Source: a bacterium (lineage in GTDB: Bacteria > Bacillota > DTU030 > DUMP01). Taken from it: a DNA stretch of 64,000 nt. A program made the translations under genes and the position numbers. The DNA is taken from contig JBMNIX010000011.1 of assembly GCA_050951365.1 (NCBI GenBank), positions 8,845-72,844 of the forward strand. The letters run 5' to 3'. Numbering within the stretch: the first letter of the stretch is position 1; each line of letters begins with the position of its first letter. Under the pieces are notes generated by a model. The model was not told the origin of the DNA and did no database searches. It saw only the letters and a program-made list of their open reading frames with translations. Shown piece by piece: positions 425 to 62,709 of the stretch.

Positions 425-2278
425 ATGGGCAACGGGTACTGGGGCAAGGTCTTACGCGTAAACCTGACCGACCGCACCTTTCGGGAAGAACCAGTGGGTG
501 AGGACGTTTGGCGCAGGCTCCTGGGTGGGGCTGGCTACGGGGCCAAGGTGCTGCTCGAGGAGACACCGGCCAAGGTGGACCCGCTGGGACCGGAGAACAA
601 GATCATCTTCGGCATCGGCTGCCTGCAGAGCGTCCCGGCGCCGGGGAGCGCCAAGTGGAGCGTGGTCACCAAGTCACCCTTAACCCGCACGTACCTGGAT
701 TCCGCCGGGGCGGGCACCTAGGCGCCCATCTTCAAGCGCACCGGGTACGACTCGCTCGTCATCGAAGGCAAGGCCAGCGAACCGCTCTACCTCTACATTA
801 CCGACGGCAGGGTGGAGTTCCGCCCCGCCGGGCACCTCTGGGGCAAGACAACCGGCGAAACCACCGGCACCTTAAAGGATGAACTAGGCAAGAACGCCAG
901 TGTGCTCAGTATCGGTCCGGCCGGTGAGCGCCTGGTTCCCATCGCCTGCATCGCCTCCGACGGCATCAGCTTCGCCGGTCGCGGCGGTGCCGGCGCCGTA
1001 ATGGGCTCGAAGAACCTCAAGGCCATCGCCGCCTATGGGACCCAGGAGTGCCCCGTGGCCGACCGCGAAACGGCCTACCGGCTCAGCCGGGAAATGATGA
1101 GGGAACTGGCCGAGCGCGGCGCCGGCTTCAGCGAGAACGGTACACCCGCCGTTATCGTACCGTTTGAGGAGATGGGCGACACCCCCATCAAATACTGGAC
1201 GGGGGACGTGTGGCACGAGGGCGCGCGCCTGCTGGGGACGCCGCACTATAACGAGGTCCTAAACACGAAACCGCTGCACTGTCTGCACTGCCCGGTGGGC
1301 TGCCACCGCCGCGTGCGGGTGGACGGTCCGCCGGAGTTCGCCATGGAGGGTAACGGCCCGGAGTACGAGACCATCGCCATGTTAGGCTCCAACCTCCTCA
1401 TCGACGACTTGGCCCCCGTCACCAAGGCCAACGAGCTCTGCAACATGCTGGGGATCGACACCATCTCGGCCGGCGCCTGGATCGGTTTCCTGATGGAGTG
1501 CTACGAGAAGGGGCTCCTCACCGACGCCGAGCTGGGCGGCCCGGTGCGTTGGGGCGACGGCCACCGGATGGTGGAGCTCGTCGAGCAGATCGCCCGGGGT
1601 GAAGGCGTGAGCCGCTTCTTTAAGGAAGGCATTGTGGGCGCAGCGAAAATGGTCGGGAAAGGCGCCGAAGAGCTCATCGTCCACGTGAAGAACCTGGACT
1701 TCCCCGCCCACGACCCGCGCGCCGTTTTCGGCCTGGGCGTGAACTACGCCACCTGCCCCATCGGCGCCTCCCACGAGCGCGGCGACCCGCAGGCCACCGC
1801 CCTGGGCCTCTGCTACCCCGAGCTCGGCTGGGATGAACCGCCGGAGCGCTTCGACATCGACCGCGCCGCCGAGGTGGCTTACGTCATCACCAATGCCAGC
1901 CTGATGTACAACTCCCTGACGTTCTGTAAGTTCATCGTCAAAGGCGCCGGGATGACCCTTACCGAGCTCATCGACATCTTTAACGCCGTGACGGGCTGGA
2001 ACTGGACCCCGGCCGAGCTGGCCGACGTAGGTAAACGGGTCATTACGGTGCAGCGTCTCGTCAACGTGCGCGACGGCATCGGCCGCAAGGACGACGTGCT
2101 CCCGCCTAAGATGTACATCACGGCCAAGGAAGGCGGCCGCGTGGGCAAGACCCCGGCCACAGAGCACGAGCGCGTCCTCTCCGAGTACTACGCCCGGCGC
2201 GGCTGGGACGAAAACGGCGTGCCCACGCGCGAAACGGTGGAGAAACTGGCGTTGGGCGAGCTCCTTAAGTACGTGTAG
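425..2278 (+). pseudogene. aor: tungsten-type aldehyde:ferredoxin oxidoreductase (AOR family), reading frame interrupted by one in-frame TAG at 719-721
   Basis: ORF-track pieces 377..721 and 812..2278 are in the same frame. Read-through gives a continuous AOR N-domain (MGNGYWGKVLRVNLTDR...KSPLTRTYLDSAGAGT*APIFKRTGYDSLVIEGKASEPLYLYI...) followed by the catalytic domains. RBS GGAAGGAGG precedes ATG 425. Confidence 0.85.
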
Positions 2279-2341: not shown

Positions 2342-2575
2342 ATGCAAGTTAGGGTTAAGCCTGTTTCTTACTTAAAAAAATACCTGCCGGAAGGCGAAAA
2401 GGTTATGGTCAAGGAGCTGACCGCACCGGTTACGGTGGCCGAACTGCTCGCGCTCTGCGGCTTTCCGGAAGAACTCCAGCCCCTCGTTACAGTGAACGGC
2501 CACCGCAAAAAGCTGGACTACCGGGTGGCTGATGGCGACGAGATCCTCATCGCGCCGCCGGCAGCCGGCGGTTGA
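2342..2575 (+). CDS. MoaD/ThiS-family ubiquitin-like sulfur-carrier protein (C-terminal Gly-Gly)
   Basis: 77 aa ending ...DGDEILIAPPAAGG-stop. Size and the GG terminus are typical of MoaD/ThiS. RBS GGGAGTGA lies before ATG 2342, immediately downstream of AOR. Confidence 0.7.
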   Translation: MQVRVKPVSYLKKYLPEGEKVMVKELTAPVTVAELLALCGFPEELQPLVTVNGHRKKLDYRVADGDEILIAPPAAGG

Positions 2576-2674
2576 AGGGGTAGTGCGCGGGGAAAGAAGG
2601 CGGTGCCGTGGAAGTCGCCGCCCAGCGCGTCACACTGCCCCCGGCTCATTCCACCTGCCGTATCTGGGCGGGGC

Positions 2675-3631
2675 TCAAGCGAGGTCCCGCGCCGCCGGGA
2701 TGCCGGCCACGCCTTCGGCCGCCTGCACCGCCCGCAGGACGGCCTGGGCCGTCGCCTGCGCTGCGAGGGCGCCCACCTGATTGACATCGGCCTCCACCCG
2801 GCCGGTGGCCAAGCTGAAGATGGTGTCCCCGTCGAGCATGGTGTGCACCGGCCGGATGGCCCGGGCGTAACCGTCGTGGGCCATCTGGGCCACCTTGCCG
2901 GCCTGAGCCTTAGTGAGGCGCGCGTTGGTGGCCACGACGCCCAGGGTAGTATTACCCATGGCTCCAGTTGGGACGAAAGAAGTCTTGCGCAAGAACTCCT
3001 CGGCGTCTAGAAAGCCGCCTTTGTCTTCACTCAGGGTTCCGGCAACAATTCGTCCCGTGGCAGGATCTACCACATCACCCAGAGCGTTTACTGCCACCAA
3101 AGCACCCACCACCAGGTCTCCAACCTTCAGGCTGGCCGTACCGACGCCGCTTTTCATAGCCCGTTCGTGTCCCAGAAGCTTTCCTACCGTGGCACCACAA
3201 CCTGCCCCTACGTTCCCTTCTTCTACCGGCCCTGCCATCGCCTGCGCCGCAGCCTGGTAGCCCATGCTTCGATCGGGACGCACCCGGGGATCACCGATAC
3301 CCAGGTCAAACAGGCAAGCCGCAGCTACAATGGGCACGCGCGTAACACCCACATCAAAGCCATAGCCGTGTTCTTCCAGATAGGCCATTACCCCGCTTGC
3401 CGCGTCCAGGCCAAAGGCACTGCCCCCTGCCAGAACCACGGCGTGAGCCTTATCCACCAAGTTTGCAGGAGCCAAGGCATCCGTCTCTCTTGTGGCCGGG
3501 GCACTGCCCCGTACATCTACCCCGGCCACGGCACCCTCCGGGCACAGTATAGCAGTACACCCGGTGAGAGCTTCAGTGTTACTGACCTGGCCCACCCTAA
3601 TTCCGGGCACATCGGTAATGGCATCATACAT
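2675..3631 (-). CDS. P1/S58 (DmpA-like) aminopeptidase family protein
   Basis: The N-terminus MYDAITDVPGIRVGQVSNTEALTGCTAILCPEGAVAGVDVRGSAPATRETD... and the later GNTTLGVVATNA motif are characteristic of the DmpA/peptidase S58 family. Confidence 0.75.
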   Translation of the reverse strand: MYDAITDVPGIRVGQVSNTEALTGCTAILCPEGAVAGVDVRGSAPATRETDALAPANLVDKAHAVVLAGGSAFGLDAASGVMAYLEEHGYGFDVGVTRVPIVAAACLFDLGIGDPRVRPDRSMGYQAAAQAMAGPVEEGNVGAGCGATVGKLLGHERAMKSGVGTASLKVGDLVVGALVAVNALGDVVDPATGRIVAGTLSEDKGGFLDAEEFLRKTSFVPTGAMGNTTLGVVATNARLTKAQAGKVAQMAHDGYARAIRPVHTMLDGDTIFSLATGRVEADVNQVGALAAQATAQAVLRAVQAAEGVAGIPAARDLA

Positions 3632-3661: not shown

Positions 3662-5275
3662 TCACGCTCCGGTAAACACACGAGCGAGAGCAATGATAAC
3701 CCCTGTAACTCCCTCACCGCCTAAAAAGCCCGAGGAGACAAGCTGCCCCCGCTCACTTATCTGCGGCCAGTGCCTGTCCACCAGCCAGCGGCACAGTCCG
3801 CCTACGGCTGCAGCGGCAGAAATATACATGGGCAGATAAATCCCAATACCGATAGTCATGCCGGGGATGCCCAAGTAGTACAGCACAACACCCAGAGCAA
3901 AGCCTACCGCAAAAGCAGGAGCATGGGGTAAACCGCTCACCATAGTGGAGACGGCATATGCCTGGGGAGCAACCAGCTCGGTTCCAGGCCCCATAGCCCC
4001 AAAAGCACGGTGCATAACAAAGATCACAATCACAGAGACTGCTGCGCCTACAACACCACCAATCAGCTCGGCATAAACCTGGGCTCGCGGCATCGTGCCC
4101 AGCATGTAACCCGCCTTAAAATCCTGTAGATTATCCCCTGCTATTCCACAGGCCACCGCCACCACTGCCGCCACAAAGAAGGCGGCAGTGGTACCCGGCG
4201 TCACAACAAGCTTCACGGCTAGGAGCACCAAAATACCGAAAACCTCCATGGGGTCAATTCCTGTCTGGCCATCCAGAGTTGCGGCCATGGCAGTGGTTAT
4301 CCAAACACCCAGTATGGTAACAATGCTGGCCACGACTCCCATACCCGCAATGACAGTTAGACATACGGCTATTGCCGCCATAACGAACGGAGCCCAGCGC
4401 AGGTTTATATCACCGCGGCCGCCGAGCATAGGGCTAAAAACCTCGCGGGCTTTGGGCAAAACCCCCTTCAGAAGCACTCCCACCCCCGCCCCGACAATGA
4501 GGCCAATGCCAAAACTGTCTTTGATTGCTGTAGCTGTCTCCAGGCTGAGATAACCACCATTTACAGTCAAGGGAATGAATAGAAGATAACTGAGTACGGC
4601 ACCTAAGAACCAGGTTCCCATAAAAAGAGGGCCAATAAGGTACCCAATACCTGCCGCCATGGGTGACACCCAGACTCCGAACTGGATATTGCGCTGCCAG
4701 AGTGCTGCCGGCATCAAGGCGGCCGGAATCTTGCCCCATTGATCCCGCAGGGCAGTGATTACAGCGGCCACACCCAGGGAACCGAAGAGCCACTTGGCCT
4801 TTTGCCCGCCCTCATCACCAGCCAAGACGGTTTCCGCAGCCGCAATACCCATGGGAAAGGGAAGCTGCTCTACTTCAATGAAGTGGCGGCGCATGGCAGC
4901 CACAAAAATCACACCTAAGATGGTGCCACTCAGGGTCACAGCGAGCAAAGGCCAAAAACCTACCACCGCCTCAGGATCCAGCATCCAAATTCCTGGAACG
5001 GTGAAGGCAACACCGCCCGCCACCATGGCTCCAGCGGACATGGCTGTGTGGGCAACGTTTATCTCATTGAGATTCGTACGTCCACAAGCCTTAAGTACAG
5101 TAAGGGATAAGATAGCCACAAAGATCGTCGGCCAAGGCAGTGCCCCCATGCGCAAGGCCACATACATAGAACTGGTAGTTATGATTATCGATCCTATGAT
5201 ACCAAGTACGATCGCCCGGAGGGTAAATTGCTCCTCAAAGGACGAAGCATACCCCACTCGGTTCTGTTCCTCCAT
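3662..5275 (-). CDS. OPT-family oligopeptide transporter
   Basis: 537-aa polytopic membrane protein. The N-terminus ...EEQFTLRAIVLGIIGSIIITTSSMYVALRMGALPWPTIF... resembles bacterial OPT transporters. It lies 30 nt upstream of the DmpA-like peptidase gene on the same strand. Confidence 0.7.
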   Translation of the reverse strand: MEEQNRVGYASSFEEQFTLRAIVLGIIGSIIITTSSMYVALRMGALPWPTIFVAILSLTVLKACGRTNLNEINVAHTAMSAGAMVAGGVAFTVPGIWMLDPEAVVGFWPLLAVTLSGTILGVIFVAAMRRHFIEVEQLPFPMGIAAAETVLAGDEGGQKAKWLFGSLGVAAVITALRDQWGKIPAALMPAALWQRNIQFGVWVSPMAAGIGYLIGPLFMGTWFLGAVLSYLLFIPLTVNGGYLSLETATAIKDSFGIGLIVGAGVGVLLKGVLPKAREVFSPMLGGRGDINLRWAPFVMAAIAVCLTVIAGMGVVASIVTILGVWITTAMAATLDGQTGIDPMEVFGILVLLAVKLVVTPGTTAAFFVAAVVAVACGIAGDNLQDFKAGYMLGTMPRAQVYAELIGGVVGAAVSVIVIFVMHRAFGAMGPGTELVAPQAYAVSTMVSGLPHAPAFAVGFALGVVLYYLGIPGMTIGIGIYLPMYISAAAAVGGLCRWLVDRHWPQISERGQLVSSGFLGGEGVTGVIIALARVFTGA

Positions 5276-8471: not shown

Positions 8472-9464
8472 ATGCGGAAACGCACACTGGTATTAGTAGC
8501 CAGCCTCCTGGCACTAACACTTCTCGCCGGGTGTTCAGGGGGCCAACAACAGACCTCGCCTGGCGCTAATTATCCGGAAAAACCCATTAACTACGTGATC
8601 CCTTGGAGTCCAGGCGGTGGCAGCGACGTCATGGGGCGCATGGTGGCGGATATCATACAACAGAATAAGTTCCTGCCCCAACCCCTGGTAGTTGTAAACA
8701 AGCCAGGCGGTAGCGGCGCCGTGGGTATGAACGAAGTGGCACAGAAAAAGGGTGATCCCTACACCATTATCGGCGTAGTGTCAGGACAAATCAGTACACC
8801 CATCACCACTGGCGCTGAGGTCAAGGCCTCCACCTTTAAACCCATTGCAGCTTTAGCCCTGGATGAATTCTTTCTCTTGGTAAAACCCGAATCCGAGTTC
8901 CAAACGCTGCAGGACGTCATCGACTATGCCAAGGCCAACCCTGGTAAACTCACCATGGGCGGCACCGGTACCGGCTCTGAAGACCACATGTGCGCCGGCC
9001 TGTTGATGGACGCCGCCGGTATTCAAGTAGAGTATATCCCCTTTGATGGCGGCGGTGAGGTCATGAGCGCCCTCCTAGGCGGGCACGTACAGGTGGCCTG
9101 GGCCAATCCTTCAGAGTGTGCCTCTCAGCTAAAGGGAGGGCTGGTCAGGGTTCTGGGCGTCATGGCACCGGAGCGGACAAAAACCTATCCCGACATCCCA
9201 ACCTTTAAGGAACAGGGTGTAGATGCTGTCTTCCAGCAGATCCGCGCCATCTCTGGTTCGCCTGACATGCCCGACTACGCGGTAGAAGTAATAGGCGAAG
9301 CCCTTAAGAAGGTAAGTGAATCCGAACGCTGGCAGAAAGAATACATTGAGAAGAACGCCCTCACCTCCCGTTACCTTGGCCCGGAGGAGTACGGTCAGGC
9401 TATCGCAGAGGCTGAGAAACAGTACACTGAGATTCTCACTAACCTTGGTTTGGTCAAGAAGTAG
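8472..9464 (+). CDS. tctC: tripartite tricarboxylate transporter (TTT) substrate-binding protein, lipoprotein
   Basis: The signal peptide with lipobox LLAGCSG follows ATG 8472 (RBS GGAGGGG). The motif YPEKPINYVIPWSPGGGSDV is typical of the TctC/Bug family. Confidence 0.8.
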   Translation: MRKRTLVLVASLLALTLLAGCSGGQQQTSPGANYPEKPINYVIPWSPGGGSDVMGRMVADIIQQNKFLPQPLVVVNKPGGSGAVGMNEVAQKKGDPYTIIGVVSGQISTPITTGAEVKASTFKPIAALALDEFFLLVKPESEFQTLQDVIDYAKANPGKLTMGGTGTGSEDHMCAGLLMDAAGIQVEYIPFDGGGEVMSALLGGHVQVAWANPSECASQLKGGLVRVLGVMAPERTKTYPDIPTFKEQGVDAVFQQIRAISGSPDMPDYAVEVIGEALKKVSESERWQKEYIEKNALTSRYLGPEEYGQAIAEAEKQYTEILTNLGLVKK

Positions 9465-9566
9465 GAGCAAGATTAGCCGGTAGAGAGAAAGGAGTGGCTG
9501 CTGGCTTTTGATACACCACCGCCACAGCCCTCCTTTCACACACATCACCAACTGGAGGTTACAGCG

Positions 9567-10004
9567 ATGTCAGGCGACCGTATAGCGGGTTTATTAGGAA
9601 TGATCTGTGGACTATATTGGGGTGTGATGGGCTACAACTACGGCATCTGGGGCCAAACCGGACCAGCCAGCGGCTTCATTCCGGTGATCTTTGGTTCGCT
9701 TACTTTTGTTCTCAGTACTATACTCATCGGGCAAACATTTACGCGGGGCGGAATTAAGCTTAGCATCGGAGAGATACGAACTGTAGTCCTTATCTCTGTT
9801 TTTACGGGTACAGCCATCTTTCTCCTGAATAAACTGGGCACTATGCCTACTCTGGGGCTACTCATTCTTCTCTGGTTGCGCTTCCTCGAGCGTTATCCCT
9901 GGGCCGCAGTCATTAAAATCAGTGTGGGCACCATCGCAGTTGCCTATTTCGTGTTCGTGGTTTGGCTGCAAGTACCATTTCCTACAGGCTGGCTGGGCTT
10001 CTAA
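9567..10004 (+). CDS. tctB: TTT small membrane subunit
   Basis: 145-aa protein with 4 predicted TM segments, lying between the tctC-like and tctA-like genes. Confidence 0.6.
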   Translation: MSGDRIAGLLGMICGLYWGVMGYNYGIWGQTGPASGFIPVIFGSLTFVLSTILIGQTFTRGGIKLSIGEIRTVVLISVFTGTAIFLLNKLGTMPTLGLLILLWLRFLERYPWAAVIKISVGTIAVAYFVFVVWLQVPFPTGWLGF

Positions 10005-58121: not shown

Positions 58122-58418
58122 TTAACTAAGCTGGTCCTCCAGTGTGTTCAAGAGCTGATTCAATTGTTTTAGCTTCTGAGCGGCGTCTTGTTCATTGCTA
58201 GCAAACCGATTGAGCTGGTTCGTGGCCTGGGCCTCACGAGCAGCGGTAGCTTGATAGTTAGGAGAATGGGCATTGGACAGGATCTGCTGGTTGGTCTGCT
58301 CATCTTTCGCCAATTGCTGGGCCATTCGCACGTTGCTTGTTTCAGCCTGTTCCAGTTGATTGATGATCTGGCGCATCTGGTTTAAAGTTTGCTTTGCCTG
58401 CTGTTTATTTGCGGGCAT
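58122..58418 (-). CDS. Gln/Asn-rich coiled-coil small protein, function unknown
   Basis: ATG 58418 (RBS GGAGGTGG) gives MPANKQQAKQTLNQMRQIINQLEQAETSN...; 98 aa. Confidence 0.45.
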   Translation of the reverse strand: MPANKQQAKQTLNQMRQIINQLEQAETSNVRMAQQLAKDEQTNQQILSNAHSPNYQATAAREAQATNQLNRFASNEQDAAQKLKQLNQLLNTLEDQLS

Positions 58419-58460
58419 GTAACCACCTCCATGCGTATTGTTCCCAGGAGACGAGATATA

Positions 58461-58490
58461 AAAAACAAAAACCCCGCGTGAGCGCGGGAT
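58461..58490 (-). terminator. rho-independent terminator ending the agr/HD-GYP operon
   Basis: On the minus strand, CCCGCGC-tcac-GCGGGG is followed by TTTTTGTTTTTT. Confidence 0.8.
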
Positions 58491-58505
58491 CAAAAACAAC
58501 ATTTT

Positions 58506-59090
58506 CTAGGTAAAACTTCGCATTGTGGATTTTTTTGTTTTAAAGAGTTGAACCAGTTCGGGATCAAAGGCTGTACCGGCATTCTCAACCAGTTGTTCTA
58601 TGGCGTCGGCATCACTCATGGCACCATGATAGGGACGATCGGTGGTCATGGCGTCGTAGCTGTCAACTATTCTTATGATGCGGGCGGCCAGCGGTATCTC
58701 CTCGCCTTTGAGCTGGTCAGGATAACCACTGCCATCATAGTTTTCGTGATGATGACGGATTATCCTAGCCGCGGGTTCCAAAGAAGGTATCGCCCCCACT
58801 ATCTCGCTTCCCCAATGAGGGTGTTGGCGGAATGTGTTTATTTCCTCTGGTGTCAAACGGCCAGGAGTGTTGAGAAGGTAACGATCGATTTCTATCTTAC
58901 CTATATCGTGCAAGAAGGCAGCGTAGCGCAGAAAACGCAGTTCATCACCTTCAAGCCCCAGCCAACTGGCGAATTCACTGGCATACTTTAACACGCGGAC
59001 AGAGTGACCGTAGGTGTACCTGTCCTTGACGTTGATGACCGCAATTAGGGTCTGTACTGAATTGACTAGCTCCCGTTCATCTTCAGCCAT
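58506..59090 (-). CDS. HD-GYP domain c-di-GMP phosphodiesterase (stand-alone catalytic domain)
   Basis: YTYGHSVRV, FLHDIGKIEI, HHENYDGSGYP and IVDSYDAMTTDRPY. ATG 59090 is chosen because the longer ORF-track N-terminus overlaps the agrD-like ORF. The start is uncertain. Confidence 0.8.
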   Translation of the reverse strand: MAEDERELVNSVQTLIAVINVKDRYTYGHSVRVLKYASEFASWLGLEGDELRFLRYAAFLHDIGKIEIDRYLLNTPGRLTPEEINTFRQHPHWGSEIVGAIPSLEPAARIIRHHHENYDGSGYPDQLKGEEIPLAARIIRIVDSYDAMTTDRPYHGAMSDADAIEQLVENAGTAFDPELVQLFKTKKSTMRSFT

Positions 59091-59158
59091 GTCATCAAAC
59101 ACCGAACAGTAGATGACTACCCGGTTCTTGTCTAGGACCTTATAAAGAAGAGTCTTGT

Positions 59159-59290
59159 CTATTTTTGTAACATTTTGGGAACAGTCGGTTGATAGTGGCC
59201 GAGGAAACAGGCTGAAGCCGAGGCAACATTGGCCACCATCATCAGCCCTACTACTGCTACACCCAACAACCAGTGTGCAAACCTTTTCAT
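59159..59290 (-). CDS. agrD: AgrD-like autoinducing-peptide precursor (43 aa; absent from the ORF track)
   Basis: Its ATG shares a base with the agrB stop (TGATG). The product is MKRFAHWLLGVAVVGLMMVANVASASACFLGHYQPTVPKMLQK. It has an amphipathic leader, a single Cys, and a tail resembling clostridial AgrD (C. perfringens ...TSACLWFTHQPEEPKSLRDE, from memory). Confidence 0.7.
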   Translation of the reverse strand: MKRFAHWLLGVAVVGLMMVANVASASACFLGHYQPTVPKMLQK

Positions 59291-59928
59291 CACACAACCT
59301 CCTCTCTTTCGTATTTTGCCACTCCAAGCATATCAATCCATCTGAACAGGTTGTGGCCTGACCTGGTTAGGATAAAGGCACTCCACAAAATAGCCAGAGA
59401 AATGCTTCCCCGTACTCCCAGGGGCAGCCACCCATTTGGAAGTATTAGGACAATAGCCCACAGCATTAAGGTTACCATGGCTCCTAACCTTAGCTTTTTT
59501 CTCCTTTGCAGGGATATTATGGGCGCTCCTGGAGAGTCCACAGGAGCCAGATAATATACAAGAGTAACCCCCGTTATTACACTTACGATTGTTAGCGTGT
59601 TCACTATCGTTGGTCCGAAATACGAGAACATTGCAGCTGTCGCAGCGATGGCAGGGAATAGCAAGACCGTCACCACTGTACAGCGCAAAGGTGAGTTACT
59701 GTGGGCGCCACCTGAGAAAAAGCGAACGGTGGACACAACAAGGAGCGCAGCTATAGTCTCCACAACCAGACCCAAAAGATAAGCACACAGGAGCGAAAGA
59801 ATAACATTGAGGAGGTTAAGGCTCAGAACTTCGATAGCATACGCCATTACTTCTTCCGTCTCCGCTGATGCATTAGCCTTAGAGGCCAAGAAACGAGCGG
59901 CTTTTCTGCTGTGGGGAAGATAAGCCAT
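59290..59928 (-). CDS. agrB: AgrB-family accessory gene regulator protein (AIP-processing membrane peptidase)
   Basis: A polytopic protein with the AgrB hallmark VRFFSGGAHS and a basic loop (RRKKLR). The start is ATG 59928 (50-nt overlap with the upstream ORF) or ATG 59847. Confidence 0.8.
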   Translation of the reverse strand: MAYLPHSRKAARFLASKANASAETEEVMAYAIEVLSLNLLNVILSLLCAYLLGLVVETIAALLVVSTVRFFSGGAHSNSPLRCTVVTVLLFPAIAATAAMFSYFGPTIVNTLTIVSVITGVTLVYYLAPVDSPGAPIISLQRRKKLRLGAMVTLMLWAIVLILPNGWLPLGVRGSISLAILWSAFILTRSGHNLFRWIDMLGVAKYEREEVV

Positions 59929-60394
59929 GATGCTCTGTTGTTCCTTTCCTTGCTCTAAAGTGCCACACGGTCAACGCCAGTATTATCATCGTCACCGCCT
60001 GCGGCAGGCCAACTAATGCCCAAAGCAGGGGATCTGTTGCAACGGTTTGCACATCTACCTCGAGAAGGGCAAAGGCCAAAGTGTGGAAACCAAACTCTAG
60101 TACAGCTATCAGAACTGCACTGGAAAAGGCAGCCAAGAAGCCTTTGGCCGAGGACACATTGCCTATTTTAATGACAATAATCATCAAAAAGAGCAGACCC
60201 AAGAGTGTATGTATCCCGAAAGGAAAGGGCAGGTATCGAATCGATTGGATCGCTAGCATAAGCCCGGCAGAATAACCCATAACCTGCCTAAGGCTAGGGG
60301 TTATACCCGCTATAACCAAGGCCATACTAAAGAGCCCTAAGATTTCCAAGTATGCTTGTAGGACCACTATGATAGATACATACACACTCCACAC
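59879..60394 (-). CDS. polytopic membrane protein (about 5 TM segments, no soluble domain), first gene of the agr-like cluster
   Basis: 171 aa from GTG 60394, hydrophobic throughout. It overlaps or abuts agrB. No kinase or other catalytic motif is seen. Confidence 0.55.
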   Translation of the reverse strand: MWSVYVSIIVVLQAYLEILGLFSMALVIAGITPSLRQVMGYSAGLMLAIQSIRYLPFPFGIHTLLGLLFLMIIVIKIGNVSSAKGFLAAFSSAVLIAVLEFGFHTLAFALLEVDVQTVATDPLLWALVGLPQAVTMIILALTVWHFRARKGTTEHHGLSSPQQKSRSFLGL

Positions 60395-60443: not shown

Positions 60444-60465
60444 ATTATACCACCAGAGGAGTCAA
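60444..60465 (-). promoter_or_regulatory. candidate sigma-A extended -10 promoter (TGgTATAAT) for the agr-like operon
   Basis: The minus strand reads TTGACTcctctggTGGTATAAT about 50 nt upstream of GTG 60394. The TTGACT is too close (10 nt) to serve as a canonical -35 element. Confidence 0.35.
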
Positions 60466-60552
60466 TATCCAGATTGATTTGCGACAAATTTTTTCAAAAA
60501 CCCTCTATTCCGGACTCACTCACTTAACAGTGTTACCCATACAGACAGCAAA

Positions 60553-60588: not shown

Positions 60589-60664
60589 TGGTAGCCCCAA
60601 GGGGATTCGAACCCCTGTTGCCGCCGTGAAAGGGCGGTGTCCTAAACCACTAGACCATGGGGCC
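60589..60664 (-). tRNA. tRNA-Glu (anticodon UUC)
   Basis: The reverse complement GGCCCCATGGTCTAGTGGTTTAGGACACCGCCCTTTCACGGCGGCAACAGGGGTTCGAATCCCCTTGGGGCTACCA folds as a cloverleaf. The anticodon loop is CT-TTC-AC and CCA is encoded. Confidence 0.9.
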
Positions 60665-60755: not shown

Positions 60756-61577
60756 TTAGATCCACTGACTTATCTTGGCATCAATGCTACTAATCACCGC
60801 ACGGGCATTGGCATAGGCATAGTCTGGCGGAAGTAAAGTACGAACCAGATACTCCTTGTTAGTTTCGTCGGGGTCAATGGCTGCTACCAAATCTGGGCGT
60901 AGTGATGTATCTGGATCGTTGAAGCGCAGGGGCAAGAGCCATTTGTAGCCCCCTGCCTCCGCATTTTTGTCCCGATACCACTGCGGCACGGCAACCTGAG
61001 CAGCAATCCGGTGGGCGGTTGTAACTGCACCGTAAAGAACCAAGAAGCGTTGGTAGGGTGTGAGGTTGGGCAGAATTTCTCTAATTCGTGACTCGTGGTC
61101 CCGGAGGTAATGGTCAAAATTAAACTGAAGCTTGTAGTCGCTCCGATACTTAGGATACTTGTATTTAGGAGCCTTGGGAGCCTTTTCCCTCACCGTGGTA
61201 GCGGAAGCAGAGCCCAAGGAAACCTCAAATGATTCACCCTTAAAAACAAACGTGGCTACAAAGGGTTGCCTGTTTTCTAAGCGATTCTTCATAAATAATA
61301 CCGTTATCGGCTGGCCATCGGTAGAAACTAGGTGTCCCACCCGCCAGAGGCAATAGGAATCGTCTTTAGCAAACTTGAGCAATCCCTGTTCTCTAGCAAT
61401 CTCAAAGTTATAATCCATATAAATAGATAAAACTTGCAGGTTGTCGCCCCAGTTCTCCCTTACAGCGAACTCGGCCACCTTTTGAATGATAGCATCGGGA
61501 ACATGGGCAAAGAGTCGCAACAATGTCGGGTAATCGTTTTCCGGCAATCTGTGTCCCTCCTTGTAATATGTAGGCAA
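60756..61577 (-). CDS. DUF3825-like hypothetical protein
   Basis: 273 aa. ...ENWGDNLQVLSIYMDYNFEIAREQGLL... and ...YKWLLPLRF...AYANARAV... resemble the DUF3825 pattern as I remember it. Confidence 0.45.
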   Translation of the reverse strand: MPTYYKEGHRLPENDYPTLLRLFAHVPDAIIQKVAEFAVRENWGDNLQVLSIYMDYNFEIAREQGLLKFAKDDSYCLWRVGHLVSTDGQPITVLFMKNRLENRQPFVATFVFKGESFEVSLGSASATTVREKAPKAPKYKYPKYRSDYKLQFNFDHYLRDHESRIREILPNLTPYQRFLVLYGAVTTAHRIAAQVAVPQWYRDKNAEAGGYKWLLPLRFNDPDTSLRPDLVAAIDPDETNKEYLVRTLLPPDYAYANARAVISSIDAKISQWI

Positions 61578-61591
61578 CTTCTCTGCACAAC

Positions 61592-62709
61592 CTAAGAGAA
61601 GTTGCTAGGCTTCTTGCCCGCTTTGCAACGGAGAACCTTTGATTTTGGGTTGTACTTAAAGCCTTGTTCCTCAAGCCTGTCTTTCTTTGTGCGATTAGGA
61701 ATGTAGGGTTTGATATTGCTTTCAACCAACTCCGTTCGAAAAGTGGAATCATCGTAACCCCTGTCAGCAGCCAGTCGGGATGCCTTCAACTCCCTTTCTT
61801 CCAAGGCCGCTATCATTTCCTTGGCGGGTTCAAGTTCCGCTTCGTTGCCTGGAGTAACCTCCGCAGCGGTGACAATGCCCGTCTCATCGCAAGCCGCATG
61901 AACTTTGTATCCCAAGAACGGTTCGTCTTTCTTCTTAAAGCCCCAGCGAGCCTCCGGATCACTGAAGCTGGCTACACCCTCACCGTTCAGAACGGCGGCA
62001 TAAAGAGCGCACTCTCTCCCCACAGACTCATCAGTAGTACAGTCTCCTACGGCTGCCAGGAATTTCTTGCCCTGCTCGATCTCGGCAGCGAGAAGCTCCG
62101 TGTGGGAGGAATAGTCGGCATCAGGCAGCGGAGCAGCTAGATTTTGCAGTTCTTCCGCCTTGGCAGCGTCGACGCGCGCCAGATTCCTAAGTACGCGCTT
62201 ACGGCCTTCCCGCACCAAACTCAGGGTATTCTTGACGGCAACGTGAGCTATCACCTTGGTCCCATCAATGATCGTCCAGTGGCCGCGAAGGCACTTCTTA
62301 GCTTTCGCTTCTGCAACGACCCGCTCGAAAAGCTCACGGAACTTCTCTTCTCCCAAGCGTTTGCGGAAGACCACCAGGGTAGTGTCGTCGGGAACTATCG
62401 TCGTCCCACCCAAAGTCGCAGAACCAGCGGTAGAGCACGTTGTACTTGAGCTCCCGGCACACCTGTACATCGGAAAGGCCCGCCCAAACTCTCCAAGAAG
62501 AGCACCCTGAACAGGGACTCCGGGGGATAGCTGGGTCGCCCGTTCACCGGGTCATATAAGTCCGCGACCACTCCCGTTACAAAGGAAAAATCGACATGCT
62601 TCTTAATTTGTACCAAAGGATGGAGTAGCTTCGACATTGTGCAGCCTTTACCCTGCCAAATACTACAAATCTCTCCCACCGACATGAGCAAGGATAAGTC
62701 ACCGCTCAA
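61592..62709 (-). mobile_element. decayed IS5/IS1182-like transposase gene (at least 2 frameshifts, 3' truncated)
   Basis: The N-terminal DUF772-like block ...DLYDPVNGRPSYPPESLFRVLFLE is in one frame. LSDVQVCRELKYNVLYRWFCDFGWDDD is in a second frame. The DDE body (IIDGTKV..., LAADRGYDD...) is in a third frame and ends shortly after ...RCKAGKKP, before the expected catalytic Glu region. Confidence 0.7.

Follow-up and report, generated by a model that had tools for sequence, protein, structure and literature searches.

The agr system is the best-studied model of peptide quorum sensing in Gram-positive bacteria, and its known outputs are phosphorelays. In Staphylococcus aureus (agrBDCA), the peptidase AgrB, which has a catalytic His and Cys, and the short peptide precursor AgrD are accompanied by the HPK10-type kinase AgrC (HATPase_c_5) and the LytTR regulator AgrA. 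Orphan agrBD loci occur in clostridia, such as that of Clostridium perfringens, which is read by VirS/VirR, and agr1 of C. difficile. Quorum signals have also been connected with c-di-GMP in Burkholderia and Xanthomonas, by means of RpfR, a BDSF receptor with a PAS-GGDEF-EAL architecture, and of the DSF system RpfC/RpfG, which includes an HD-GYP response regulator. In Clostridioides difficile 027, agr signalling influences c-di-GMP turnover, since mutation of agrA lowers the expression of three GGDEF/EAL phosphodiesterase genes at other sites in the genome (PMC3754575). Finally, an integral membrane protease, MroQ, has been shown to remove the AgrD leader in S. aureus (PMC9388083).

The locus analysed here lies in a window of 64,000 nucleotides (the whole stretch of DNA under analysis) and is probably best explained, taken as a whole, as a conserved four-gene agr-type cassette in which a downstream sensor reads the peptide, the window carrying a receptor-deleted allele. 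All the cassette features with an orientation are on the minus strand. Upstream of the cassette there is a promoter-like site (60444..60471; TGGATA-16-TATAAT with an extended TG), which in a consensus scan from 60471 to 60444 has 10 of 12 matches, a consensus match only, and which is also present in the intact allele on contig L001. The first gene (59879..60394) codes for a 171-aa membrane protein with five transmembrane helices and overlaps the start of agrB by 50 nt. It is followed by agrB (59290..59928), coding for the 212-aa membrane peptidase that cleaves and cyclises AgrD (Pfam PF04647), and by agrD (59159..59290), coding for the 43-aa autoinducing-peptide precursor MKRFAHWLLGVAVVGLMMVANVASASACFLGHYQPTVPKMLQK (TIGR04223). 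A deletion junction (59138..59141) separates these genes from the 3' remnant of a receptor gene (58506..59141), which comprises codons 336-546 plus the stop and encodes HD-GYP. The cassette ends, as a reading of the window from sequence only had claimed, with an intrinsic-terminator-like hairpin (58470..58491), which read from 58491 to 58470 has a 9-bp stem with 6 G-C pairs, followed by TTTGTTTTTT; the same hairpin occupies the matching place in the intact allele (L001, 12486..12507), and no terminator is found between agrD and the HD-GYP frame in the window. The same reading had described the locus as an agr-like cassette lacking AgrC and AgrA, and indeed neither the HPK10 kinase (HATPase_c_5) nor the LytTR regulator is present in the window cassette or among the 20 window ORFs of fitting size, which include no two-component genes at all. 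Within and upstream of the cassette there is no c-di-GMP riboswitch or other Rfam element.

The two genes that define the locus as agr-type are well supported. The window AgrB scores 122 bits against PF04647 (cut-off 23; E 2.1e-35) and carries the motif GGAHSxSxxRC, whose H76 and C83 are invariant in an alignment of six cassette AgrBs (6/6); we take them to be the catalytic His and Cys, H77 and C84 in S. aureus numbering. An identical AgrB protein is encoded on nine public contigs. The ATG of agrD overlaps the agrB stop by 1 nt (TGATG), with an alternative GTG start one codon upstream that would yield 44 aa, and the peptide matches the model TIGR04223, 'AgrD family cyclic lactone autoinducer peptide', at 35.3 bits (E 9e-9; cut-off 19), in agreement with the proposal that this unannotated ORF encodes AgrD. 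Moreover, the small ORF is conserved next to agrB in relatives, with an orthologous peptide in 40 of the 41 complete related cassettes, a conservation far beyond chance. The orthologues share an invariant Cys, four hypervariable residues and then Y-Q-[PTS]-x-[VMIE]-P-x-x-L; in an alignment of 23 of them C28, Y33, P35, P38 and L41 are invariant and positions 29-32 hypervariable. The predicted thiolactone ring is C28-F-L-G-H32, the same five-residue CFLGH core put forward earlier, its boundary being predicted by alignment with S. aureus and C. perfringens AgrD sequences. The locus is thus a true cyclic-peptide signalling cassette of the agr type, and its unannotated AgrD is genuine. It resembles S. 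aureus agrBDCA in its AgrB peptidase with catalytic His and Cys, in the make-up of its short AgrD (amphipathic leader, one Cys, a ring of five residues and a recognition tail that is acidic or rich in Pro), and in the translational coupling of agrB and agrD. The clostridial orphan loci are similar in having agrBD without adjacent AgrCA, small hypothetical genes upstream of agrB and an AgrD tail of the form QPE(V/E)PxSL; the AgrD of one related cassette, L056 (ACVWFTYQPEEPKSLREE), is close to the C. perfringens type.

The sequence-only reading had regarded the last frame of the cassette as a stand-alone HD-GYP phosphodiesterase gene, a claim that is not borne out by comparison with near-identical DNA. 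The frame matches HD_5 (PF13487; 1.5e-41) and has HDIGK and HHENYDGSGYP. At the same position, however, a protein of 546 aa (P0001) is encoded on five metagenome contigs that share about 99.9% identity with the window; its domain order is six-helix membrane sensor, GGDEF (residues 185-341; PF00990, 6e-42, RYGGEEF) and HD-GYP (HD_5, 366-531; 4e-41). The window frame is collinear with residues 336-546 of this protein, at about 99.9% DNA identity to L001, and the window lacks 1,044 bp that are found in near-identical contigs, including L001 (10792..11835, absent from the window by blastn) and L003-L005. The junction, an AAGG microhomology, is visible both in a three-way alignment and by direct reading of the sequence. 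The deletion takes out the conserved hairpin after agrD, the ribosome-binding site, the native start codon and codons 1-335, which correspond to the sensor and nearly all of the GGDEF domain, and it leaves the last few GGDEF residues and the entire HD-GYP domain. The first in-frame ATG of the remnant (59090) has only a weak GGTG ahead of it, and the window frame is thus not a complete translatable gene. The ORF stretch upstream of the junction (59142..59336) is spurious; no conserved HD-GYP start overlaps the peptide ORF at 59336, and the extension to the TTG found there is an accident of the junction. The HD-GYP frame is best regarded not as a gene in its own right but as the 3' remnant of a receptor gene, that is, a pseudogene that should be annotated as such, whose product could at most be a weakly translated, unregulated phosphodiesterase. 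The window allele presumably still makes the peptide, its cognate receptor being lost.

The deletion might instead be an artefact of assembly or binning, either a chimeric join at AAGG or a collapsed minority variant, in an organism that has an intact receptor gene. A 40-mer across the junction is not found in the metagenome contigs, where no independent contig carries the deletion; the five intact contigs come from other samples, and the window's own contig is not among the collections searched. We nevertheless consider an artefact unlikely, if far from negligible, because the join is clean, with a 4-nt microhomology between otherwise collinear flanks of about 99.9% identity, as is typical of real deletions by replication slippage or illegitimate recombination. 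In addition, related cassettes decay independently, L139 having lost AgrB and the membrane protein and L051 lacking AgrD, and receptor-defective agr variants are common in staphylococci.

The four-gene cassette is present in 44 distinct loci of Desulfotomaculia, Syntrophomonadia and Moorella-type Bacillota, with unrelated flanks. A scan with an AgrB alignment yielded 40 genome loci, which have the membrane protein, AgrB and a gene with the same sensor wherever the contig extends. Reciprocally, nine of nine sampled receptor homologues, including those of Pelotomaculum thermopropionicum SI, Sporotomaculum syntrophicum, Moorella sulfitireducens and the complete 3.33-Mb genome GCA_900176005.1, have agrBD or its remnants directly upstream, again between unrelated flanks. 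As a negative control, 80 metagenome loci (444 kb) were taken from a scan with the full-length receptor alignment, 79 of which were unrelated loci matched by generic GGDEF motifs; AgrB occurs only in one, which also has the sensor. The fourth gene encodes sensor-GGDEF-HD-GYP in 24 of the 41 typed cassettes and the same sensor fused to a HisKA histidine kinase in the other 17. None of the 41 cassettes is flanked by a kinase or regulator pair, no response regulator adjoins the kinase-type receptors at the 18 loci examined (17 distinct cassettes), and no HPK10-type AgrC (HATPase_c_5) or LytTR AgrA occurs in or beside any cassette. In all intact loci a terminator-like hairpin stands between agrD and the receptor gene, which suggests attenuated read-through into the latter, and with it in between the two genes may not be fully co-transcribed. 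The family is conserved and apparently undescribed; the searchable literature yielded no paper connecting agrBD to these taxa or to an adjacent GGDEF or HD-GYP gene. The earlier suggestion that peptide signalling is linked to c-di-GMP turnover has the backing of gene context, and the link reaches further than was suggested, although the roles given to the proteins do not find support: the physical link with agrBD is conserved across families and recurs in 24 of the 41 typed cassettes with differing flanks, whereas the partner is a polytopic membrane protein with GGDEF and HD-GYP domains and not a soluble stand-alone enzyme.

The sensor is the element common to both kinds of receptor. In the intact receptor six predicted helices precede GGDEF and HD_5, and an HMM built solely from GGDEF-type sensors detects, in 17 cassettes, the N-terminal part of the protein encoded downstream, with E-values from 1e-22 to 1e-45. 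Ten kinase-type proteins scanned with Pfam contain HisKA and HATPase_c, with or without PAS, and the remaining seven were classed by their histidine-kinase H-box motif. The alignment of the GGDEF type versus the kinase type diverges exactly after a GWFxGGxxDxExxHRxxL helix. Because the same sensor is fused to GGDEF-HD-GYP or to a HisKA kinase in sister cassettes, it is likely the peptide receptor, and c-di-GMP would be one of two interchangeable outputs of the cassette. Among 120 receptor homologues GG[DE]EF is present in at least 98 and HD[IV]GK and HHExx[DN]GxGYP in 119 each; none of the 102 homologues that allowed a check has the RxxD I-site. In 15 of 18 close pairs conservation is lower in the sensor than in the output domain, a difference to be read with the faster drift of membrane domains in general, and together with the hypervariable AgrD ring this resembles the specificity divergence of staphylococcal agr, where the sensor likewise diverges faster than the output. 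The putative receptor is also similar to that of S. aureus in being polytopic, with about six helices, and encoded next to agrD. It differs in its output, GGDEF plus HD-GYP or a HisKA kinase, in the absence of HPK10-type AgrC and LytTR AgrA, and in a gene order of membrane protein, B, D and receptor. The clostridial orphan agrBD loci differ in another respect, given that the cassette always encodes a receptor candidate, which is a c-di-GMP enzyme in about 60% of cases (24/41 typed). PDB sequence and fold searches with the sensor revealed no similarity to an annotated peptide receptor, the sequence searches returning designed transmembrane proteins or noise only. Its best PDB match, a weak one, is ImcA of Pseudomonas aeruginosa (8wcn; E 0.07, TM-score 0.49, 17% identity), a membrane diguanylate cyclase that similarly has a helical membrane module N-terminal to GGDEF but no known link to peptides or agr.

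The membrane protein encoded ahead of agrB, an extra conserved gene with respect to S. aureus agrBDCA, is predicted by AlphaFold2 with a pLDDT of 91.7 to be membrane-embedded throughout, with five helices. It has no Pfam or NCBIfam match, and an exhaustive phmmer search of 1.84 billion representative proteins gave homologues in only 93 clusters at E<=1e-3, each of about 140-200 aa and stand-alone throughout, which points to a small unnamed family. In this family E17 and E100 are invariant and Q13, G60, H62 and G129 nearly so; no Pfam match at E<=1 is common to more than three of 61 members, a PDB sequence search with the family profile gave designed transmembrane proteins or noise only, and the predicted fold has no PDB match (best E 0.66). 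Homology to the sensor was considered and rejected (BLASTP E>10; hhalign probability 0.2%), as was membership of the CPBP/Abi (MroQ-like) intramembrane proteases, which are marked by EExxxR, FxxxH and HxxxB motifs, on the lack of a match to that Pfam family or to a PDB fold. Wherever the contig extends far enough, a gene of this type lies ahead of agrB. The sequence-only reading was right that this is an all-membrane protein with no kinase domain, but its suggested role as a receptor is not supported; the sensor of the downstream protein is the better candidate, and the 171-aa protein has no output domain and accompanies both GGDEF-HD-GYP and kinase receptors. It might be, with low confidence, a dedicated partner of about 155-170 aa in peptide maturation or export. 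MroQ would then be a possible functional analogue, as a small polytopic membrane protein needed besides AgrB; the family also has invariant Glu residues and a near-invariant His within helices, although it shows no sequence or fold similarity to CPBP/Abi proteins. To our knowledge, MroQ is not encoded in the agr operon.

Three other readings of the cassette have been weighed against the one preferred here. It seems highly unlikely that agrBD are co-expressed with a functional phosphodiesterase consisting of the stand-alone HD-GYP protein, which the 171-aa protein, as a peptide receptor, would control by contact. The HD-GYP domain is intact with all its catalytic motifs, an in-frame ATG (59090) lies behind the weak GGTG, no terminator separates the frame from agrD in the window, and the 171-aa protein is strictly conserved with the cassette. 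Nonetheless, this form exists in the window only, all relatives, including the contigs about 99.9% identical to it, having the 546-aa membrane protein; the ribosome-binding site and native start are deleted; and the 171-aa protein has no cytoplasmic domain of note and is not tied to HD-GYP, because it accompanies kinase-type receptors equally.

The idea that the downstream sensor is merely a conserved neighbour for some other cue, membrane or metabolic, which controls agrBD or responds in parallel while an unlinked AgrC-like kinase reads the peptide, is improbable but carries more weight. Receptor function has been deduced from gene context, what follows the conserved hairpin behind agrD might be transcribed separately, and distant kinases do read orphan agrBD loci, VirS/VirR in C. 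perfringens being an example. This is difficult to reconcile with a linkage that holds both ways practically without exception, in divergent taxa and between differing flanks, with the retention of sensor and position while the output domain is swapped, and with the lack of an adjoining kinase or regulator pair at all 41 cassettes. A small membrane protein without known function and a hypervariable ring would also suit a secreted bioactive cyclic peptide, for example an antimicrobial, with the 171-aa protein in immunity or export and the sensor enzyme reporting self-damage. We give this very little credence, because the precursor matches the AgrD family model and tail motif, all characterised AgrB/AgrD products that we know of are signals, and the cassette itself holds a dedicated sensor with regulatory outputs.

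Under the preferred reading, that of a four-gene cassette with its own peptide sensor, family membership and alignment suggest that AgrB would cut AgrD after His32 and close the five-residue thiolactone CFLGH. The peptide would be sensed by the six-helix membrane domain of the downstream protein, as the strict gene linkage and the swap of output domains indicate. In the lineage of the window this sensor would drive a tandem GGDEF (GGEEF, no I-site) plus HD-GYP module, so that binding of the peptide would act directly, with no intervening phosphorelay, on the relative rates of c-di-GMP synthesis and hydrolysis; in sister cassettes its output would be a HisKA histidine kinase. The window allele would have lost sensor, cyclase domain and translation start to the 1,044-bp microhomology deletion. 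The scheme resembles RpfR and RpfC/RpfG in that at most one step separates a quorum signal from a change in c-di-GMP, which is made by a GGDEF, EAL or HD-GYP enzyme linked to the receptor. Those systems, however, use fatty-acid signals and a cytoplasmic PAS domain or hybrid kinase in Proteobacteria, whereas the cassette would use a ribosomal cyclic peptide and membrane-domain sensing in Gram-positive anaerobes, and the sequence relationship is limited to the catalytic domains. In C. difficile 027, in turn, the link between agr and c-di-GMP is transcriptional, while here the enzyme is in the cassette and is the putative receptor.

A broader joint reading, which we offer tentatively and rate slightly below an even chance, is that a whole family of agr-like systems, spread among Bacillota that are syntrophs, sulfate reducers or acetogens, detects its cyclic peptide through a bifunctional membrane receptor able both to make and to hydrolyse c-di-GMP, and that on at least one occasion the sensor was transferred to a histidine kinase. 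The membrane protein of about 155 aa, with its invariant Glu/Glu/His, would be a new factor in AgrD maturation or export, the SD/anti-SD-like hairpin after agrD would set the signal:receptor ratio, and the window would hold a natural allele that produces the signal and does not sense it. The idea is directly testable, because several cultured and sequenced carriers exist, and the natural swap of GGDEF-HD-GYP and kinase on one sensor is a ready-made system for studying signal transmission by membrane peptide sensors. The unnamed partner may, for its part, fill a gap in AgrD leader removal outside staphylococci. If true, Gram-positive bacteria would here offer, as far as we know, their first case of a peptide-pheromone receptor whose output is a second messenger, and one protein would unite cell-density peptides with the second messenger of the sessile/motile switch. 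Aggregation with partners is ecologically central for the carriers, which are syntrophs and sulfate reducers (Pelotomaculum, Syntrophomonas, Sporotomaculum and Desulfotomaculum-type bacteria).

Four tightly packed minus-strand reading frames lie between a tRNA-Glu gene (60589..60664), the upstream boundary of the cassette, and a hairpin terminator (58491..58470), its downstream boundary, with a promoter-like site of the extended -10 type (60471..60444) upstream of the four genes. The first frame (60394..59879) codes for a 171-aa protein for which neither Pfam nor NCBIfam gave a match, and overlaps the second, agrB (59928..59290; PF04647, E 2e-35); the third, agrD (59290..59159), codes for 43 aa, and its ATG has one base in common with the agrB stop. 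The fourth contains a complete HD-GYP domain (PF13487, E 1.5e-41) with the motifs HDIGK and HHENYDGSGYP. A sequence-only reading had described the locus correctly at this level, and had taken the 43-aa peptide for an unannotated AgrD, as borne out by TIGR04223 (35.3 bits, cut-off 19). AgrB and AgrD mark the cassette as an agr system of a kind other than the canonical agrBDCA operon, since the AgrC/AgrA feature was tested for and found lacking, and none of the 20 size-fitting ORFs of the window is a kinase or response regulator.

The same reading had seen in the fourth frame a stand-alone HD-GYP gene. There is none: near-identical contigs identify the frame as codons 336-546 of a gene for a 546-aa putative receptor. 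The exact AgrB protein of the window occurs in nine public contigs, and in four of the six places shown (metagenome contigs L001, L003, L004, and L005, about 99.9% identical to the window) the product of the gene 3' of agrD is 546 aa long and has a GGDEF and an HD_5 domain; in L002 the same 546-aa-type gene runs off the contig end. By blastn, the window and L001 match in two collinear blocks (~99.9% identity), between which the 1,044 bp of L001 10792..11835 have no counterpart in the window, and a three-way alignment places the join at an AAGG common to both sides (window 59141..59138). Along with a hairpin, the missing segment carries the translation start (GAGGTG ribosome-binding site and ATG) and codons 1-335, which encode the entire membrane domain and the GGDEF domain except its last residues (Pfam GGDEF: residues 185-341); codons 336-546 remain in the window. 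It is the join that opens the frame across agrD as far as a TTG at 59336, and the first in-frame ATG of the remnant is at 59090, with a weak GGTG nine bases upstream. A 1,044-bp deletion has thus taken the receptor from the window copy, or the loss is only apparent if the assembly is at fault. The deletion is without independent sighting because the junction-spanning 40-mer does not occur in the metagenome contig collection and the window's own contig is not among the contigs and genomes retrieved. It is clean and plausible, and a real event is the probable explanation. Decay has been found in other genomes as well: one locus (L139 2552..3000) keeps the receptor with only a C-terminal fragment of AgrB, a shortened AgrD leader, and no membrane-protein gene, and in a kinase-type locus (L051 6627..6697) agrB is followed by the kinase without an AgrD in between. 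Together with the receptor deletion of the window, these cases suggest frequent loss-of-function variants, as also seen in staphylococcal agr.

A DUF3825 protein gene (60756..61577, minus strand; 273 aa as listed, TTG start; PF12873, 1.6e-18) immediately precedes the tRNA-Glu and the cassette. It is kept in the near-identical contigs L001-L003, and in other species it does not belong to the cassette. Degenerate transposase remnants (DDE_Tnp_1, DUF772) occupy 61592..62709 (minus strand), between tRNA-Gln and the DUF3825 gene; here only patches of the window align with L001, at ~92% identity (elsewhere ~99.9%), so that the two strains differ in this stretch as well. Immediately 3' of the cassette terminator, 58122..58502 (minus strand) codes for a small Gln/Asn-rich, coiled-coil-like protein (126 aa as the longest ORF, with a later start at MPANKQQAK probable), for which precomputed annotations give only a weak YxeD match.

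Homologues of the 546-aa protein (~560 aa) all have a membrane domain, GGDEF, and HD-GYP, and come from Syntrophomonadaceae, Desulfotomaculaceae, Pelotomaculum, Sporotomaculum, Desulfallas, Moorella, and relatives. For nine of them (37-100% identity), looked up in their contigs, agrB and a 41-44-aa agrD, or remnants, are always immediately upstream, and a 150-170-aa membrane protein gene precedes agrB in eight; the surrounding genes differ in each locus. A scan for AgrB with a four-sequence alignment against one genome per GTDB species returned 40 loci from the same lineages, with the single exception of a MAG labelled Deltaproteobacteria. The closest of them to the window AgrB has 44% identity, and the window's species was therefore not retrieved from the species representatives. 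HMMs were built for the membrane protein and AgrB (from their alignments) and for ten receptors, in full length and as their first 185 residues, and run on all ORFs of the fetched loci. The order membrane protein, AgrB, small ORF, and a protein whose N-terminus matches the sensor HMM was found in every locus with a long enough contig. Among 80 control loci (444 kb) fetched from metagenomes via generic GGDEF motifs, AgrB occurred once, in the sole locus with the sensor. In the complete reference genome of Pelotomaculum thermopropionicum SI (AP009389.1), the returned gene table calls no gene for AgrB (209 aa; L009 4154..4783) or AgrD (43 aa, 4804..4935, ring CAGAW), which are located at ~2.2366-2.2375 Mb between a called 155-aa gene and PTH_2130. 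The anatomy of the cassette and its conservation can be stated with high confidence.

Some genomes contain duplicated cassette parts (L028 6827..8167 and 8483..9793; L041 1814..2323 and 2472..2918; L138 931..1443 and 1664..2188; L047 2963..3460, minus strand). The small membrane-protein gene is present twice in several loci, Pelotomaculum propionicicum MGP carries a tandem pair of kinase-type receptors, and the MAG SRP263991_co4_160 has two separate cassettes (L038 and L041). A whole cassette is also present in a 27-kb record labelled 'Klebsiella pneumoniae strain LZK001 plasmid unnamed3' (L136; NZ_CP061968.1 18309..27033), with frameshifted membrane-protein and AgrB genes, an AgrD ending in ...KPACFTWFYQPEIPRALKK, and a 564-aa receptor; this record, which lacks annotation and has 55.7% G+C in the 8.7-kb stretch fetched, is most likely a misassigned Bacillota contig.

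The output of the receptor is exchangeable. The fourth gene is of the GGDEF-HD-GYP type in 24 of 44 distinct cassettes and of a histidine kinase type in 17, the contig ending before it in the other three. In the kinase-type proteins, a sensor HMM built from GGDEF-type proteins only matches the N-terminus (1e-22 to 1e-45) and leaves the remainder without match. All ten scanned with Pfam have HisKA and HATPase_c, often preceded by PAS, and the other seven were classed by the H-box motif of histidine kinases. Sensors of the two types can be aligned from end to end (~190 residues) and share the motifs ER…YE[YH]…TTH at the N-terminus, LLLPV[IL]xTAS…GK, and a final helix GWFxGGxxDxExxHRxxL, exactly after which one type continues into TDxLTGLxNxRYF, where GGDEF starts, and the other into a coiled coil. 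In neighbour joining of AgrB, most of the kinase-type cassettes (15 of 17) form one clade nested in the GGDEF-type diversity and two fall elsewhere, the number of swaps being uncertain because the tree is without bootstrap support. The kinase parts resemble AtoS, ZraS, and KinD-like kinases with scores far under the family cut-offs, and no response regulator was found adjoining these receptors. The enzyme motifs of 120 receptor homologues are nearly always preserved, and none of the 102 that could be checked has an inhibitory RxxD site; both GGDEF and HD-GYP activities are thus plausible. The sensor model (pLDDT 84) has as best fold match the membrane diguanylate cyclase ImcA (8wcn; E 0.07, TM-score 0.49), and no sequence match was found for this domain. 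In 15 of 18 closely related pairs, conservation is lower in the sensor than in the output domain (e.g., 59% vs 81% in a pair with rings CGSYQ and CMGGH), which is compatible with co-diversification of peptide and sensor and not specific evidence for it. The strongest argument here that the sensor would read the peptide is its retention behind agrD while the output is exchanged; that it reads the peptide and sets c-di-GMP is somewhat favoured.

An AgrD-like ORF is present in 40 of the 41 complete cassettes. Cys28, Tyr33, Pro35, Pro38, and Leu41 are invariant in the 23 distinct peptides aligned, and the four positions that follow the Cys vary nearly throughout (FLGH, FLMH, AGAW, FAWH, VVGH, LIST, GSYH, etc.). 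Alignment with the precursors of Staphylococcus aureus (…C-DFIM/DEVEVPKEL) and Clostridium perfringens (…C-LWFT/HQPEEPKSL) would put the scissile bond after residue 32 and give a five-residue ring, CFLGH in the window, in agreement with the ring already proposed from its sequence. Between agrD and the receptor gene, a strong local stem-loop begins 0-11 nt after the agrD stop in the 32 cassettes folded (L001 10788..10809), with the consensus AAAGAGGTGG-loop-CCACCTCTTT in 27 aligned regions, followed in many by T-rich sequence. For six of the nine pairs that RNAalifold predicts, compensatory substitutions maintain the pairing, and the receptor gene's own ribosome-binding site, GAGGTGA, comes ~20-30 nt later. 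This hairpin looks like an intrinsic terminator or attenuator, which would yield more agrBD message than receptor message. Alternatively, a translational switch sequestering a Shine-Dalgarno sequence is conceivable, since the 5' arm resembles such a sequence and the 3' arm its complement. In the window its place would be just 3' of 59141 (minus strand); the deletion starts at its first base and has removed it.

The 171-aa protein had been proposed as a possible receptor, a role for which the downstream sensor domain is better placed; a comparison ruled out any relationship between the two. Its family is small: an exhaustive phmmer search of 1.84 billion representatives returned 93 clusters (E<=1e-3), all of ~140-200 aa and none fused to another domain, with Glu17 and Glu100 invariant and Gln13, Gly60, His62, and Gly129 nearly so. 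AlphaFold2 predicts a confident five-helix bundle (pLDDT 91.7) with no fold match (best E 0.66) or sequence match in the PDB, and Pfam gave no consistent signal on 61 members. Because its gene overlaps agrB and the family accompanies both receptor types, the protein may act in signal production, where our guess would be a leader peptidase or a partner in export, analogous to MroQ, which performs the second AgrD cleavage in S. aureus (PMC9388083). By every membership test it falls outside the CPBP family, and confidence in any specific role is low.

Fatty-acid quorum signals are known to change c-di-GMP through RpfR and RpfC/RpfG. The logic of these systems is similar to that of the cassette, although they are unrelated to it except in their catalytic domains. 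In Clostridioides difficile, the link from agr to c-di-GMP is transcriptional and involves distant genes (PMC3754575). A full-text literature search found neither agrBD beside GGDEF or HD-GYP genes nor agr loci in the taxa of the cassette; its scope did not extend to the comparative survey of Wuster & Babu (2008), where an earlier mention is possible. The sequence-only reading was wrong in its specifics for the window, both in the separate phosphodiesterase gene and in the 171-aa protein as receptor candidate. The unusual link it proposed between agrBD and c-di-GMP is stronger and wider than it had supposed, since this link characterises a family of conserved cassettes whose outputs are interchangeable.
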